In this document: in pieces, positions 5,468-23,761 of the stretch | How the letters are laid out: each line of letters opens with the position of its first letter | Numbering within the stretch: position 1 is the stretch's first letter | Virus record (IMG/VR): IMGVR_UViG_3300030059_002959 | Location: 1-27,240 of that record | Length of the DNA stretch: 27,240 nucleotides | Reading direction: 5' to 3' (one strand) | Source of the DNA: a virus | Taxonomy: Duplodnaviria > Caudoviricetes | The notes under the pieces: model-generated | The model's database searches: none | Told to the model about the DNA's origin: nothing | The model's input: only the letters and a program-made list of their open reading frames with translations | Program-made: the position numbers and the translations under genes

Positions 5468-5557
5468 TTCCGTTATTTAATTATATTATAAATATAATAC
5501 AATTTTCTCGGTTCTGAACTATAAATCTTATTTATTTTTAAAAAGTTATTAACAATT
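5468..5557 (-). promoter_or_regulatory. Repeated early-promoter cassette, copy 1 (ligase)
   Basis: Minus strand AATTGTTAATAACTTT...TTTATAGTTCAG...TATATTTATA...AACGGAAA-ATG. Confidence 0.75.
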
Positions 5558-5764: not shown

Positions 5765-6352
5765 TTAATATTTAGTATTAAAAAAGAAAGTTTGAAAAAG
5801 TCTACCACTTTCTAAATCTTTACCGAAATATTCTAATGATTTATGAAACATATCGCCTCTATATAATACTAGCCTGTTATATTTGTTACCAACCATTGCA
5901 GTCATATCCCATTTAGAATCATCCCTAGAATCTGGATAAATTACTTTTTCAAGATATTCTTGATCATATGAACCATCCTCTAATCTTGGTGGCGTTTCTA
6001 AACCTGTTTCTTTATGTCTAAATAAACCAGTACCGCCATTAGCAGGCGCATCGGGTGTTAAGTAACATACACCAGCCCACATTGTTGTATGATCAGCATG
6101 AATCCAACTAGTATCATCAACTGTTGTATATTGAAAAGAAGTTGTATAATCGTAATCCCAATCAGTAATATCACCACCAGCTGCTTGGACAATACCTTGT
6201 ATAGATGTTCTTAAGTCTTTCCAATCATGGACAGGCTTAGTTCTTTTACCTGGATAATTACCAACTACATCAAAAGGTTGTTCTAAAACCCATTCTCTTA
6301 CGAGATCAGGGTTTCCGTAAAAATCGTCTGTTATTATTAAATCTGTATTCAT
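5765..6352 (-). CDS. 2OG-Fe(II) oxygenase-like protein (DUF6445-like)
   Basis: IITDDFY start, NYPGKRT, WIHAD (HxD), YNRLVLY, distal H (MFHKS), RLFQTFF. Confidence 0.75.
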   Translation of the reverse strand: MNTDLIITDDFYGNPDLVREWVLEQPFDVVGNYPGKRTKPVHDWKDLRTSIQGIVQAAGGDITDWDYDYTTSFQYTTVDDTSWIHADHTTMWAGVCYLTPDAPANGGTGLFRHKETGLETPPRLEDGSYDQEYLEKVIYPDSRDDSKWDMTAMVGNKYNRLVLYRGDMFHKSLEYFGKDLESGRLFQTFFFNTKY

Positions 6353-11160: not shown

Positions 11161-11616
11161 TTAATTTTGAAACTCAACAGTTGAGTTAACTAACATTCCG
11201 TATGCTGGATCTGCCCACGTTTTAGAACCGAGGGTTTTCCAATGATCATAGTCAGCCATTGCAGGGAAGCTAGAATGAATATCTCCTACTGTTAAATTTT
11301 CTAAGATTTCTTTATCAACTATATAGAATTTACCACCTTTCATTGCAAGAGCAGTTAGATAAGTACCATATTCATTTTTAAGTTGTATAGTATGTAACCT
11401 ATTTGTTTTATAACCTGTAACAATATGGCTTAACTTAGACTTTCCTGTGGATACAGTAAAAAATCCAGCTTGGCATTTTGTAATAACTTGATAGTCATAT
11501 TCCTTACCCCAGCATAATCCGTGCTTATGAGCATGGAATTTGTATTGCTTACCTTTTACTTGTTGAGTGATTGAGAATCCTGTTGTTCCAATCGCGTTGT
11601 GTTCTGTAATTTGCAT
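11161..11616 (-). CDS. Hypothetical early protein
   Basis: 151 aa, directly downstream of cassette copy 2. Confidence 0.7.
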   Translation of the reverse strand: MQITEHNAIGTTGFSITQQVKGKQYKFHAHKHGLCWGKEYDYQVITKCQAGFFTVSTGKSKLSHIVTGYKTNRLHTIQLKNEYGTYLTALAMKGGKFYIVDKEILENLTVGDIHSSFPAMADYDHWKTLGSKTWADPAYGMLVNSTVEFQN

Positions 11617-11622
11617 AATTAT

Positions 11623-11712
11623 TTCCGTTTTATTATTATAATATAAATATAATCAATTTTTAAGGAAACCAGCCATACTTCTCTAATTATTTTCAAAAAG
11701 TTATTAACAATT
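11623..11712 (-). promoter_or_regulatory. Early-promoter cassette, copy 2
   Basis: Same boxes as copy 1; 54-nt core differs from copy 7 at 2 positions. Confidence 0.75.
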
Positions 11713-12802: not shown

Positions 12803-12899
12803 TTCCGTTTTTGTTTTAATTATTATAATATAAATATAATCAATTAAATGGGATTCTGAACTATAAATTCACGTTATTTTCAAAAAGTTATTAACAATT
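12803..12899 (-). promoter_or_regulatory. Early-promoter cassette, copy 3
   Basis: AATTGTTAATAACTTTT...TTTATAGTTCAG...AATTGATTATATTTATA...AAACGGAACT-ATG. Confidence 0.75.
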
Positions 12900-13088
12900 T
12901 TAAAACTTCTTATTAATCTTTTGTTGGTAGATAGCTTTTAATTTTTGCTTTCTTTTAGCCGCAGATGGCTTAGTGAATTCTTTTCTACTTCTAATCTCTT
13001 TAAGGAGCTGAGTTTCTCTAACTTTTCTTTTGTATTGTTTTAATACCTTGTCAATTGAATCTCGTTCTCCTTTTTTGATTATTAGCAT
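12900..13088 (-). CDS. rpsU: Phage-encoded ribosomal protein bS21
   Basis: MLII...SIDKVLKQYKRK...LLKEIRSRKEFTKPSAAKR...KAIY; Bacteroidota-type. Confidence 0.92.
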   Translation of the reverse strand: MLIIKKGERDSIDKVLKQYKRKVRETQLLKEIRSRKEFTKPSAAKRKQKLKAIYQQKINKKF

Positions 13089-13120
13089 ATAAGTTTTTGT
13101 TTTGTTATTTATTTAATGGG

Positions 13121-13194
13121 TGAACCAGAAAGGATTCGAACCTTTGACCGTTGCCTTAGAAGGGCAATGCTCTATCCAGCTGAGCTACTGGTCC
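13121..13194 (-). tRNA. tRNA-Arg(TCT)
   Basis: GGACCAG/CTGGTTC acceptor, TAGCTCAGCTGGATAGAGC D-arm, TTGCC-CTTCTAA-GGCAA anticodon arm, GGTTCGAATCC T-arm. Confidence 0.95.
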
Positions 13195-13199
13195 AATTA

Positions 13200-16519: not shown

Positions 16520-16574
16520 GTTTAATTTCTTTATTTAATATAATTATAACAAGTACTCTAAGTAACTGAAAGAC

Positions 16575-17298
16575 GCAACACATATTATTTAGCTCATATT
16601 TTTTCAGGCCCAATTTTTTCTGGACTAGACTTTACGATATACTACATACTTTTAGACTAAGAGATCTGGACACTGCTCTTTTTCTGGACTAGAAAATTTT
16701 GAATACCGGAAAGTCATGACCATGGCTAACCTCTAGAAAGAGAAGCGAATTATACTATTTAAGAGAATTATACTCCGGAGATCATTATGACATTGCCTTA
16801 TGCTACCACAGGACTACCACTACTACAAGACTACTATAGACAACAAGAGACATGAGTTGCTTTACTACTACTAGAGTCCATACTACCTGTAGGGCTACGC
16901 TAGCGGGCTAAACCACCTGTCTAGACTGTACTAGGGCTAGAGATGATTGTGGTTAGTTTTAGTGCTTGTAGGGTTGTTTGTGGACATCTGCAGGCTAGTG
17001 AGGTCTGTGGCGTGCCCTACAGGACCACTAGGGTCTAGGGAGGATATTATCCGATATTGGAGGAAATAGAAGGTATCTAGTGTACTCTAAGGTGCTATAT
17101 AGGCTATATGGAGGCTATTAGATGATCTAGAAGGCTATATATGGGCTATATTAGGCTATATATGAGCTATATAGTGCTCTAGAGGGCCCAAAATAGTGTG
17201 TTATATAGGCCTTCTAGAGGGCTGCTCTAGAGGGAGTGTAAAATGGCCTATTCTAGAGTGAGTAATAACACCCTAAATAGACCTAGTAAAAACATCAT
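16575..17298. other. Non-coding island A: CTAG-rich, direct repeats, long imperfect hairpin, phased GCTATA array
   Basis: No ORF of 60 aa or more; about 18 CTAG by manual count; inverted repeat 16886-16895/17014-17023; 15-bp direct repeat at 16615 and 16679. Confidence 0.8.
17094..17258 (+). repeat. Array of GCTAT(A/T) at ~10-bp period, followed by four TCTAGAG
   Basis: GCTAT at 17094, 17103, 17114, 17134, 17145, 17155, 17166; TCTAGAG at 17178, 17213, 17226, 17252. Confidence 0.8.
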
Positions 17299-17328
17299 AA
17301 AAAAAGGCCCCTAATTAAAGGAGCCTTT
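17299..17328 (-). terminator. Rho-independent terminator downstream of the DUF932-like gene
   Basis: Minus strand AAAGGCTCCT-TTAATT-AGGGGCC-TTTTTTT (7-bp stem with one G-U, 7 U). Confidence 0.85.
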
Positions 17329-17398
17329 CGTGGGATTATTGGTATGTAGATAAACGGAAATCTAAACTACTAACCTCATCCTTTCAGAGTTTAGGATA
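17299..17398 (-). ncRNA. Candidate 3'-UTR-derived sRNA with a UUCCGUUU loop
   Basis: Stem UAGAU/AUCUA closes an 8-nt loop complementary to the AAACGGAA leader motif; followed by the terminator. Confidence 0.4.
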
Positions 17399-18559
17399 TT
17401 ATGCTTGTCCCATTAAACGTGCAGATTCAGATTCAGACAATAACCCAGTTCCATTAGCAAACGGATCAAATTGGATTAAAGCTTCTGTATCAAAATTCTT
17501 TTTCATTAAAAGGTTTCCAGCTGATACCATTAGATTACCATTTGCATGATCATCTATATTGTATTTTTCATCATTGGATGCAAAGTTTGTTATACCATTA
17601 ACTACTTCCCAGATTGATAAACCTGATTTAGCATTTTGTAATTGCTTTGTAGTAAAGGTAGAAGGTTCAGCTCCAATATCAGAGTATGCTTTCATAACTC
17701 TATTAATTGGTAAGTACCTTTGCATATATTCAAAATCTATTTTTTTATCAGTAGATAACATAGCGGACATAGCGCGTTGTACTTCAGCAATACTTGCATC
17801 GGTATCGTTAGCAGATTTAATCTTATCAGCTAATCCTACAGGTTGAAATCCAGTAGAAGCCATTTGAATCATATGTTCATTAAATTCATTGATTGATTTA
17901 TCAGTTAGTTCATGTAAACCGTATGTTTCAGAGAATGATGTAGAAGACATACCGTTAGAACAAACCAATCGGTTTAAATAAGGCGATACTTCTAATCCTC
18001 TAGTTGGAGTATTTCTGAATGTTACACCAGTATTAAATACCTCATCCGACATTCCTGGAACCTTAAATACAGAATTAGGAGATACACAGTTAATAGTAGC
18101 CCCACCTGATGGATCCGATCCGAAGTCTTTTACTTCCAATCCATATTGATTGATATACCCTTCAGCAAATTCAACGAATGCTTCATTACTAATACTTGCA
18201 TATCCTGCAGGTAGTATATTAGTAACTTTCTTTTCTCTTGGATCAACTAACAGAGTTACTGTTTGATCGTTCTTAGATGATTTCATTGTTTTCATCATTT
18301 GAACTAGTTGTTGTAATCCATCAGAACCGAATCCTGTTTCGAACCTTTTAGCAAATGCTGTTGGTATTCTTAACCTACCTAATAACCTTTTAAAGGCAAA
18401 TGCGGTTAATTCTATTTTTACTCCGTCAACCTCGATATGAGTATTGTCGATTACATTGAACTCAGATAAACTGATTTCTTTTCTCATTACTTCGTTCCTA
18501 ATTGCTTCGTCCTTACGGATCTTGAATGCAGTTGGCGATAATGTAGTTAATTCTTTCAT
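17399..18559 (-). CDS. DUF932-like phage/plasmid protein
   Basis: RLVCSNGM signature, Y..ISN..F, C-terminal W.VVN.IT..A. Confidence 0.65.
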   Translation of the reverse strand: MKELTTLSPTAFKIRKDEAIRNEVMRKEISLSEFNVIDNTHIEVDGVKIELTAFAFKRLLGRLRIPTAFAKRFETGFGSDGLQQLVQMMKTMKSSKNDQTVTLLVDPREKKVTNILPAGYASISNEAFVEFAEGYINQYGLEVKDFGSDPSGGATINCVSPNSVFKVPGMSDEVFNTGVTFRNTPTRGLEVSPYLNRLVCSNGMSSTSFSETYGLHELTDKSINEFNEHMIQMASTGFQPVGLADKIKSANDTDASIAEVQRAMSAMLSTDKKIDFEYMQRYLPINRVMKAYSDIGAEPSTFTTKQLQNAKSGLSIWEVVNGITNFASNDEKYNIDDHANGNLMVSAGNLLMKKNFDTEALIQFDPFANGTGLLSESESARLMGQA

Positions 18560-18599
18560 AAATTTGACTGTTTTTGTTTTTTGTTTGTTATTGTTATTA

Positions 18600-18674
18600 T
18601 TAATATAAATATAATCAATTTCTACCTATTTAGAACTATATCTTCTTGTTTTGTTTCAAAAGTTATTAACAATT
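18600..18674 (-). promoter_or_regulatory. Early-promoter cassette, copy 4 (leader lacks AACGGAA)
   Basis: Both boxes present; leader ends AAAAACAGTCAAATTT-ATG. Confidence 0.75.
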
Positions 18675-18679
18675 GGATA

Positions 18680-19558
18680 TTATTTATCATCAGTAGCTTT
18701 TTCTGAATCTAATCCGAATAGCGCATCGAATTGTAATCCTGACTTTTTGATCTTTTCTTTTTCTTGTAGTTTTAATTTCTTTAAAGATTCAGATTTCTTG
18801 AACCTTTCAGTATCGTATGTTACATCTCCACTCGCAGCTAAATCAAAATACATTTGCTTTCCTACATGGCCTCTTCGGTTTTTACTGAAAGTAACATACC
18901 TTTCATCCTGCGTACGTTCATCCACGAATCGGATCTCCATCATACCTGTAGTCATATGCTTCAGTTTGTTGGATCCAACGAATGAACCACCTTTATTTAC
19001 TTGTTGGATATTTAGGAAGGATGTAAAACACTTAGCATGGTTCGCGCCAAGATTATGTTTATACATTAAATCCAATAAGTATTTTTCAGAACTATTTCTG
19101 GTCATTCTGCCCGATTCGCGGATTGTTTCTTGTAACTCGACGAATGAATCAATTAATACTATATCATATCCTTCTAATAGGATTTCTTCTAGTACTTGTT
19201 TTGGACATTCATTATCTTCTATTTCTTGTGGAAAGAATATATCTAATTCTCCAAACTTAGGATACCTTTTAACATATAAGTATAAATCTACCTGATTCAT
19301 CTCAGCTGATATAAACAGAACCTTAGATCCAGTCTTTTTAGCATTTGCTATAATATCTAGTGTTACTGTAGATTTACCAACACCAGGATCTCCAACGACC
19401 ATCCAATTGGTAGCCTTAGGAACTCCACCGTCCATACTAAATAAACCGTCTAATGGAGTATTTGTCTTATGAGCTTCGAATAATCCTTTTTCATACTTAA
19501 CATTGCTAATCTTAGTTAGCCTTGAGTTAATCTTTTGTACCTTGTTTGCTTTTTTCAT
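18680..19558 (-). CDS. RadA/Sms-like RecA-fold ATPase (no Zn finger, no Lon-like domain)
   Basis: Walker A GDPGVGKST, ISAE, Walker B VLIDS, GSNKLKHM, KNRRG (cf. RadA KNRFG). Confidence 0.85.
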   Translation of the reverse strand: MKKANKVQKINSRLTKISNVKYEKGLFEAHKTNTPLDGLFSMDGGVPKATNWMVVGDPGVGKSTVTLDIIANAKKTGSKVLFISAEMNQVDLYLYVKRYPKFGELDIFFPQEIEDNECPKQVLEEILLEGYDIVLIDSFVELQETIRESGRMTRNSSEKYLLDLMYKHNLGANHAKCFTSFLNIQQVNKGGSFVGSNKLKHMTTGMMEIRFVDERTQDERYVTFSKNRRGHVGKQMYFDLAASGDVTYDTERFKKSESLKKLKLQEKEKIKKSGLQFDALFGLDSEKATDDK

Positions 19559-19564
19559 TATGAT

Positions 19565-19654
19565 TTCCGTTTTTTAATTATATTATAAATATAATCAATT
19601 TTAATCAGTTTTGAACTATAAATCTTAGTTATTTCCAAAAAGTTATTAACAATT
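19565..19654 (-). promoter_or_regulatory. Early-promoter cassette, copy 5
   Basis: Full cassette; AAACGGAAATCATA-ATG. Confidence 0.75.
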
Positions 19655-20457: not shown

Positions 20458-20555
20458 TTCCGTTTTAGTTATTGTTATTATTAATATAAATATAATCAAT
20501 TTTTAAGGAACCCGGCCATACTTCTCTAATTATTTTCCTAAAGTTATTAACAATT
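20458..20555 (-). promoter_or_regulatory. Early-promoter cassette, copy 7 (overlaps the 3' end of the upstream ORF)
   Basis: Near-identical to copy 2. Confidence 0.75.
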
Positions 20556-21195: not shown

Positions 21196-21299
21196 TTCCG
21201 TTTTTGTTTTAGTTATTGTTATTATTAATATAAATATAATCAATTTTTAAGGAAACCAGCCATAAACCACCATTTATTTTAGGAAAGTTATTAACAATT
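21196..21299 (-). promoter_or_regulatory. Early-promoter cassette, copy 8
   Basis: Full cassette; AAACGGAACA-ATG. Confidence 0.75.
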
Positions 21300-23510: not shown

Positions 23511-23761
23511 GATGTTGATAAGCTATTAATAAAATGAACTGTCCATGCAACTAATCCGTTTAATTGTAGAACAACTAGGTTCCATTGCTTTCTAACGGAA
23601 ACTTGTATAGTAACACAAGTAAATCCAATTACAAATAACCCAGGCTCCAATGTCCATTGCCCTGCTATTAATAATCCTGCTCCTAAATAACCAATCCTAG
23701 TAGCTAAACGCTCCCATGTGGTTAATTGCCTATCTCTTTCTATAATCTTAATTTTTTTCAT
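23507..23761 (-). CDS. Small 3-TM membrane protein (start probably MKKIKII)
   Basis: Hydrophobic helices; KQWNLV.L. Confidence 0.6.
   Translation of the reverse strand: MKKIKIIERDRQLTTWERLATRIGYLGAGLLIAGQWTLEPGLFVIGFTCVTIQVSVRKQWNLVVLQLNGLVAWTVHFINSLSTS

Follow-up and report, generated by a model that had tools for sequence, protein, structure and literature searches.

A conserved 3′ UTR hairpin mirrors a start-codon tag in a family of uncultured phages

The end of the early phase in large phages is incompletely understood, even in T4, which relies on proteins for the post-transcriptional part. In that phage the endoribonuclease RegB and the repressor RegA (PMC3014915, in excerpt) have the same job that we infer here, the shut-off of early messages via a short initiation-region motif; they are proteins, RegB cutting GGAG within the Shine-Dalgarno (SD) sequence, whereas the predicted reader here is an RNA. 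The c4 antisense RNA of phages P1 and P7 (PMC8198154, in excerpt) is, like the element described below, a phage RNA directed at phage genes through short target boxes, repression being a prediction in our case. It acts on its own immI operon in the lysis-lysogeny control of temperate phages, whereas here a single loop is predicted to address at least six dispersed operons. Lambda PreS/LPR1 and the Vibrio phage RNA VpdS (bioRxiv 10.1101/2024.10.31.621285, in excerpt) are also phage-encoded, multi-target base-pairing sRNAs of lytic growth; PreS belongs to a temperate phage, depends on Hfq and has mainly host-gene targets, and the excerpted text describes no designed tag on a class of phage genes. 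FopS/GibS of Bacteroides thetaiotaomicron (PMC11697453, in excerpt) form a 14-copy bacterial family with a single-stranded 5′ seed and host targets. Unlike them, the phage element is single-copy and phage-encoded; its seed lies within a large hairpin loop, and it is predicted to target the phage's own genes through one fixed tag that they share.

The window, meaning the whole 27,240-nt stretch of DNA analysed, is a 27-kb virus record with an estimated completeness of 11%. It codes for ribosomal protein bS21, DNA ligase, thymidylate synthase, a RadA/RecA-like ATPase, a CHU_C type IX secretion signal domain and three tRNAs. Its leaders are A-rich and without SD; since, in addition, all four bS21 relatives in the genome collection were found within Bacteroidota assemblies, the host is probably a member of the Bacteroidota, as was likewise inferred for the bS21 phages of PMC9723584 (in excerpt). 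The bS21 gene itself (12900-13195) stands right behind a tRNA-Arg, with an SD-less, untagged leader. The phage family is uncultured and aquatic. The search for a close cultured relative gave a best match of 24%, unannotated and without the loop, and all family records searched are partial (11-65%). A promoter-like cassette recurs eight times in the window, upstream of non-structural genes; from its form and from the gene content, these cassettes are presumably early promoters.

The window contains eight copies of the heptamer AACGGAA where 2.1 ± 1.4 would be expected, and none of 100 shuffles reaches eight. One copy lies at 17353-17359 on the plus strand, one, unrelated, at 23594 (plus strand), and the other six are found on the minus strand 1-6 nt before an ATG, where an earlier note on this DNA had placed them. 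These six tags stand 6 nt before the RadA/RecA-like ATPase gene (tag 19565-19571, gene 19558), 5 nt before ORF 20452 (20458-20464; 116 aa), 2 nt before ORF 21193 (21196-21202; 132 aa), 2 nt before ORF 12800 (12803-12809; 133 aa), 6 nt before ORF 11616 (11623-11629; 151 aa) and 1 nt before the ATP-dependent DNA ligase gene (5468-5474, gene 5466). ORF 12800 lies beyond the terminator discussed below and has its own cassette. In the same order, the tagged leaders are complementary to one 3′ UTR over 11, 9, 8, 8, 10 and 8 nt, in agreement with the lengths reported previously (11 nt at 19558, 10 nt at 11616, 8-9 nt at the others).

The tag is a property of cassette leaders. In the window AACGG occurs in 6/8 of them versus 0/30 other ORFs, and in four larger records the same contrast is 6/11 vs 4/184, 5/6 vs 4/175, 2/6 vs 0/61 and 4/6 vs 1/85, so that the enrichment is seen in five records out of five (Fisher p 5e-7 to 7e-3). 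Across the family we counted 173 distinct cassette leaders, 136 of other genes and 37 of the gene that bears the hairpin, counts that are inflated by kinship. AACGGA lies at most 8 nt from the ATG in 111 of the 136, including all 32 distinct leaders of the RadA-like gene family; three of the 136 have the tag inside codons 1-7 and 21 have none. Its distance to the ATG is tighter (IQR 2.75-5 nt, sd 3.4) than its distance to the promoter box (IQR 12-21, sd 6.0), and ACGGA is found 121 times among family leaders versus a single AAGGA, which together argue against a DNA operator and against an SD. The tags are predicted to be single-stranded (median 0.93 of 120).

Looser patterns are less discriminating. 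A tag+ATG search throughout record G001 barely exceeds its backward control (15 vs 14 forward), and many matches to a promoter+tag pattern belong to other phages, in which ACGGAG looks like an ordinary SD; none of five large records matching that pattern has a homolog of the hairpin-bearing gene. The joint observation of tag and loop is not chance.

The hairpin-bearing gene (17399-18559, minus strand; 386 aa) is the last one before the terminator. The label DUF932-like, given in the earlier note, holds at the level of the fold, with Foldseek matches to DUF932 proteins (E 3e-14, TM 0.56), but finds no Pfam match for the window protein; the match to phrog_1362 is weak, and PF06067 is matched weakly by 6/20 distant homologs. 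A deep-alignment model reaches pLDDT 95 (51 in the first fold) and has no PDB match at E <= 0.001. Its residues 24-119 are weakly similar to RPA OB folds (Z 6.8, rmsd 2.9, 83 aligned residues), Z below 8 being the tool's stated background.

The cassette and leader of this gene (18560-18673, minus strand; TGTTAATAAC box, and TATATTTATA box at 18613) are untagged in the window, as had been noticed. Among the 37 distinct leaders of the gene in the family, 23 lack the tag, seven have it displaced to 13-19 nt, five have AACGG followed by another base and only two carry it within 8 nt of the ATG, compared with 111/136 for other genes. The tag does adjoin the gene's own ATG in L009/L072/L074 and in L100. 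Judged by tag placement, the idea of an RNA that would silence other genes and spare its own thus fits the usual state and is too general for these lineages: self-sparing would be a rule with exceptions.

In the 3′ UTR of the DUF932-like gene, a seed hairpin spans 17333-17381 (minus strand), with an inner stem GUAG (17370-17367)/CUAC (17349-17346), outer helices and, in the predicted fold, a U-rich loop of 17 nt (17366-17350). The loop contains the seed UUCCGUUU (17352-17359, minus strand; core TCCGTTT, 17358-17352), whose core is kept across the UTRs of relatives down to 65% protein identity. An intrinsic terminator hairpin (17329-17302) with its U tract follows (17299-17329, minus strand), as the earlier reading had it, and sets the 3′ boundary of the predicted RNA. 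The fold first proposed, a 5-bp UAGAU/AUCUA stem with an 8-nt loop, has to be replaced: it is present in the sequence, but is not the predicted minimum-energy fold on the mRNA strand, and it is fully Watson-Crick paired in only 19/65 UTRs.

Scans of the collection gave 93 loci with a readable 3′ UTR (61-100% protein identity; loci truncated ahead of the stop codon were excluded), which together with the window collapse to 65 distinct UTRs, many of them closely related. In all 93 loci and the window the hairpin follows the DUF932-like gene. TCCGTTT is found in 65/65 UTRs and is their sole invariant 7-mer, TTCCGTTT is found in 63/65, and UTR length varies from about 66 to over 140 nt. Relatives keep both the leader tag and the loop (65/65 UTRs); a tag retained without its loop, which had been expected to speak against a small RNA, was not seen. 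Five records were examined for the number of such hairpins, and each has one. Some lineages carry tandem seeds, three in L008 and two in L065-L067.

With four such repeat-loop UTRs set aside, the remaining 61 all show a G-C pair closing a 14-22-nt loop that begins with UUU and holds the seed. The stem itself varies, as GUAG/CUAC, UGAG/CUCA, CUAAG/CUUAG, CAAGG/CCUUG, CCUGG/CCAGG and CCAGG/CCUGG. Because the script itself chose the closing pair, covariation was judged on pairs 2-4 only, and the control arm swaps (5000) went through the same selection as the real stems. Pairing was found in 114/123 cells versus 84.4 ± 3.9 in arm swaps (maximum 97 of 5000) and, collapsed to 12 stem types, in 32/36 versus 23.1 (maximum 30). 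The check for stem covariation that the earlier note had proposed is positive, though for the GUAG/CUAC register. A stem pattern search blind to the core returned 57 matches, three in the phage family, all with TTCCGTTT, and 54 others with no match to the DUF932-like gene; Rfam gave nothing at the hairpin, with only tRNAs matched in the window at E <= 1. On this comparative evidence, the 3′ UTR hairpin is a real, selected RNA element. A second TCCGTTT, in Asp-Pro-Phe codons of the DUF932-like gene, was dismissed as chance (8/44 relatives having that motif).

In a tree of 57 proteins, 47 hairpin-bearing ones form a single clade (support 99) apart from 10 outgroup homologs. The 65 UTRs belong to this one clade, which has three deep branches; being related, they make the joint presence of tag and loop count as one evolutionary event. 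Among the matches listed for 48 distant homologs (duplicates and truncated loci left out), none has a CCGTT loop before the terminator and the tag is not enriched; three have CCGTT past the terminator, and AACGG occurs in 0-2 leaders per locus. UTR types have been swapped between protein lineages (L026 and L027, 94% protein identity; L063, 82%), L026 being a member of the 94% clade with an L046-type UTR, which suggests that the hairpin-terminator module moves by recombination.

Several UTRs hold other structures. L149, which the tree places nearest among the outgroup homologs, has before its terminator a hairpin (5811-5900) whose 21-nt loop is rich in pyrimidines; as a candidate for a switched address it was rejected, for no matching leaders were found. 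Just past the stop codon of the DUF932-like gene, L154, L157, L203, L205, L218 and L221 have TTGGTT/TGATTG tracts and no CCGUU hairpin, and complements of these tracts occur in 7-12 leaders per locus. Such tracts may represent the mirror principle in simpler form, or else a feature common to Bacteroidota 3′ ends. Within the clade, L045, L096 and L099 add to the 3′ UTR another hairpin, located upstream, whose loop carries ACCGUU or CCCGUU. The gene's own leader contains AACGGU in L096 and L099, but also in L097, which has no second hairpin.

The terminator clearly belongs to the mRNA strand, judging from its 52 distinct stems, with 47 G-U versus 0 A-C non-canonical pairs on that strand. For the seed hairpin the same comparison is even, with 10 vs 6 events (p 0.45) and other counts of 18 vs 20 and 7 vs 4. 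The core is predicted to be open at 0.49 in the window on the mRNA strand (mean 0.62) and at 0.99 on the other strand (mean 0.88), partly because the plus-strand loop is A-rich; constrained energies favour the plus strand in 36/65 UTRs versus the mRNA strand in 27. Two things speak for the mRNA strand: the conserved unit is bounded by the stop codon and the minus-strand U tract, beyond which the sequence varies (50 different 25-mers among 65), and no opposite-strand promoter is conserved, three motifs occurring in 0, 4 and 9 of 58 and not in the window. As no internal promoter motif is conserved either (0-2/65), the active RNA would arise by processing of the 3′ end or be the intact mRNA.

The RNA data are assembled metatranscriptome contigs from 8 of 23 listed runs, which carry neither strand nor ends. 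Contigs from several studies cover the DUF932-like gene and its neighbours, and one from run X1 crosses the terminator (17064-17845). Runs X7 and X13, without cover of the UTR, are uninformative because UTRs diverge. A contig of run X11 (depth 7.8) joins the end of a 67-aa ORF to the terminator (window 17328 and 19656) and may be chimeric; its junction has 31 other letters with a seed-like stretch, in which a C-to-U change would still allow G-U pairing.

Loop and leaders are perfectly complementary over 8-11 nt, between positions -14 and -1 of the six targets. Median duplex energy is -12.1 kcal/mol for seven cassette starts versus -5.45 for 22 others, and -3.0 for the gene's own start. With opening costs included, the six targets average -6.9 versus -4.4 ± 0.6 for shuffled loops (0/100 as low) and a median of -4.1 for 37 other starts (p 0.013). 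Eight of these 37 untagged starts nonetheless lie at -7.0 or lower, one at -10.6, and match or beat several tagged targets; the duplexes are only 8-11 bp long. Record G002 has one hairpin and tags up to about 130 kb away from it, and with one hairpin per record such distances imply that pairing would be in trans.

Signs of co-change between the two partners are few. The loop of the L004/L005 lineage has the sequence UAUCCGUUUA, and 5/8 tagged leaders of G002 read AAACGGAUAUG; against this co-change stand L010 and L092, with an AUAUG leader and a plain loop. G004 has a longer U run in its loop and a longer A run in most leaders. An energy matrix showed cognate loops to be not generally better than non-cognate ones, and the core CCGUU/AACGG undergoes no compensatory switch across the family; as it never switches, compensation does not prove pairing.

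The best reading is an antisense RNA on the mRNA strand. We think it fairly probable that a 3′-end RNA of this strand pairs over 8-11 nt of the initiation region and represses early genes. The cassettes would be early promoters read by the host polymerase, and several would read through to the terminator of the DUF932-like gene, so that the structured 3′ end of its transcript would accumulate with early transcription and act as a base-pairing small RNA, the active form being either a processed fragment of ~70-100 nt or the whole mRNA. The UCCGUUU core of its U-rich loop would bind the AAACGGA tag beside the starts of most cassette-driven, presumably early, genes and block translation, the 30S subunit being kept off by a duplex that covers -14 to -1 of a leader that is A-rich and otherwise open. 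Adenines at -3, -6, -12 and -13, together with an absence of structure, modulate initiation in Flavobacterium (PMC6847099, in excerpt), and FopS sRNAs repress Bacteroides operons by pairing with initiation regions, as demonstrated by compensatory mutations in vitro (PMC11697453, in excerpt); together they lead us to expect a duplex at this place to repress. As the RNA and its targets would share one promoter class, the RNA would accumulate and subsequently dampen the targets, a delayed negative feedback by which early expression could be ended or capped, the DUF932-like gene usually being exempt.

A wider proposal, for which we see about even chances, is an RNA-addressed regulon: AAACGGA would be a fixed address in the ribosome landing site of early genes, and a single RNA, cleaved from the 3′ end of an early transcript, would read it as an off switch that times itself and does the work of T4 RegA/RegB. 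The address would be placed in the landing site because Bacteroidota leaders have no SD, and genes would join or leave by gaining, moving or losing seven bases.

The element also has the sequence-level marks of trans-acting, 3′ UTR-derived base-pairing sRNAs, namely a location between stop codon and intrinsic terminator, a conserved seed in a loop enclosed by the covarying stem, and complementarity to several initiation regions encoded elsewhere; it would work like a multi-target member of that class. By the tests run it is not a FopS RNA, a c4 RNA or a Csr sponge. It is single-copy, with its seed in an internal loop and no Rfam match at E <= 1 (the Rfam copy may not include FopS); Rfam C4 was not matched, and the icd-ant context was not found in the window. 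CsrA/Rsm sponge RNAs carry several GGA loops on the strand that is transcribed and work with a CsrA partner; here GGA is opposite the terminator strand, in one copy in most relatives, and no phage CsrA was found in five partial records.

The same pairing could have a positive or otherwise different outcome, stimulating translation or stabilising the message, for instance through 5′/3′ closure of read-through transcripts from the 21193, 20452 and 19558 cassettes, with recycling of ribosomes. Three tagged genes do precede the hairpin, with a single weak terminator-like site (-19051) in the interval, and the sign of regulation is beyond the reach of sequence comparison. We hold this outcome to be unlikely: tagged leaders are predicted to be open and have no inhibitory structure to relieve, the duplex would cover A-rich positions that promote initiation (PMC6847099, in excerpt), and 3/6 window targets and most G002 targets do not belong to this transcription unit and lack hairpins themselves. 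The DUF932-like protein is another conceivable partner, the RNA being its guide and the complex recognising tagged RNAs or DNA; the constant adjacency of hairpin and gene (93 loci and the window) and the faint OB-fold likeness would fit. That likeness falls within the tool's background, the model has no PDB match at the threshold used, UTR types are swapped between protein lineages (L026), and the 48 distant homologs are without such a hairpin among the matches listed, all of which makes this guide role very unlikely.

Three further explanations dispense with an antisense RNA. The tag might be a protein-binding or cleavage site, CsrA-like (ANGGA) or RegA/RegB-like, with a plus-strand hairpin displaying AAACGGAA as a decoy, an alternative already raised in the earlier note. 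The plus-strand loop, predicted to be fully open (0.99), resembles the leader, an invariant core without compensatory switch suits protein recognition, the seed-hairpin G-U bias (10 vs 6) is compatible with that strand, and T4 RegB does cut GGAG in early leaders (PMC3014915, in excerpt). Such a decoy nevertheless seems quite unlikely, as the UTR has no plus-strand terminator and no conserved plus-strand promoter (0, 4, 9 of 58) and conservation stops at the minus-strand U tract; CsrA (0/5) and RRM_1 (0/4) were not matched in partial records, where controls were positive, and RegA and RegB gave 0/5, with control genomes silent too. Were the tag instead a DNA operator for an early-promoter regulator, the UTR copy would be one more site, reversed. 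All tags do lie downstream of the same cassette, with a peak 12-13 nt behind the TATATTTATA box (42/120); however, their position is tied more closely to the ATG (sd 3.4) than to the promoter (sd 6.0), the leader copies all have the same orientation, and a covarying stem is unneeded around a DNA site, which leaves an operator highly improbable. We find it equally hard to credit that the tag is an SD-like site (GGA) for ribosomes carrying the phage bS21 and the loop an anti-SD mimic. The phage does encode bS21, and the loop resembles a 16S tail. Against this, AAGGA, which would pair better with the canonical anti-SD, is found once and ACGGA 121 times, the spacing of 0-7 nt is short and variable, three copies are within coding sequence, and related freshwater phages transcribe bS21 together with late genes (PMC9723584, in excerpt).

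A literature search covering few subscription papers gave no report of this hairpin, nor of any tagged early regulon addressed by a phage RNA; the hairpin may be among the 10,006 viral candidate RNAs of PMC10690425 (in excerpt). If the antisense reading is true, a single RNA reaching a whole gene class through one common tag would add a new means of timing phage development, and SD-less Bacteroidota leaders could carry regulatory addresses. The minimal 7-11-nt seed/tag pair can be tested in Flavobacterium with no need for phage culture, and might find use there as a portable translational switch.

Directly after the terminator, ~0.8 kb (16520-17298) contain no convincing ORF and are rich in short palindromes and repeats (TCTAGA, TATAG); some relatives have a counterpart of this region and others a gene in its place. 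Finally, an invariant ATTGTTAATAAC box is located ~60 nt upstream of each TATATTTATA box, at 18673-18662 of the window and at the same place in six other cassettes; its reverse, TTATTAACA, resembles a DnaA box.
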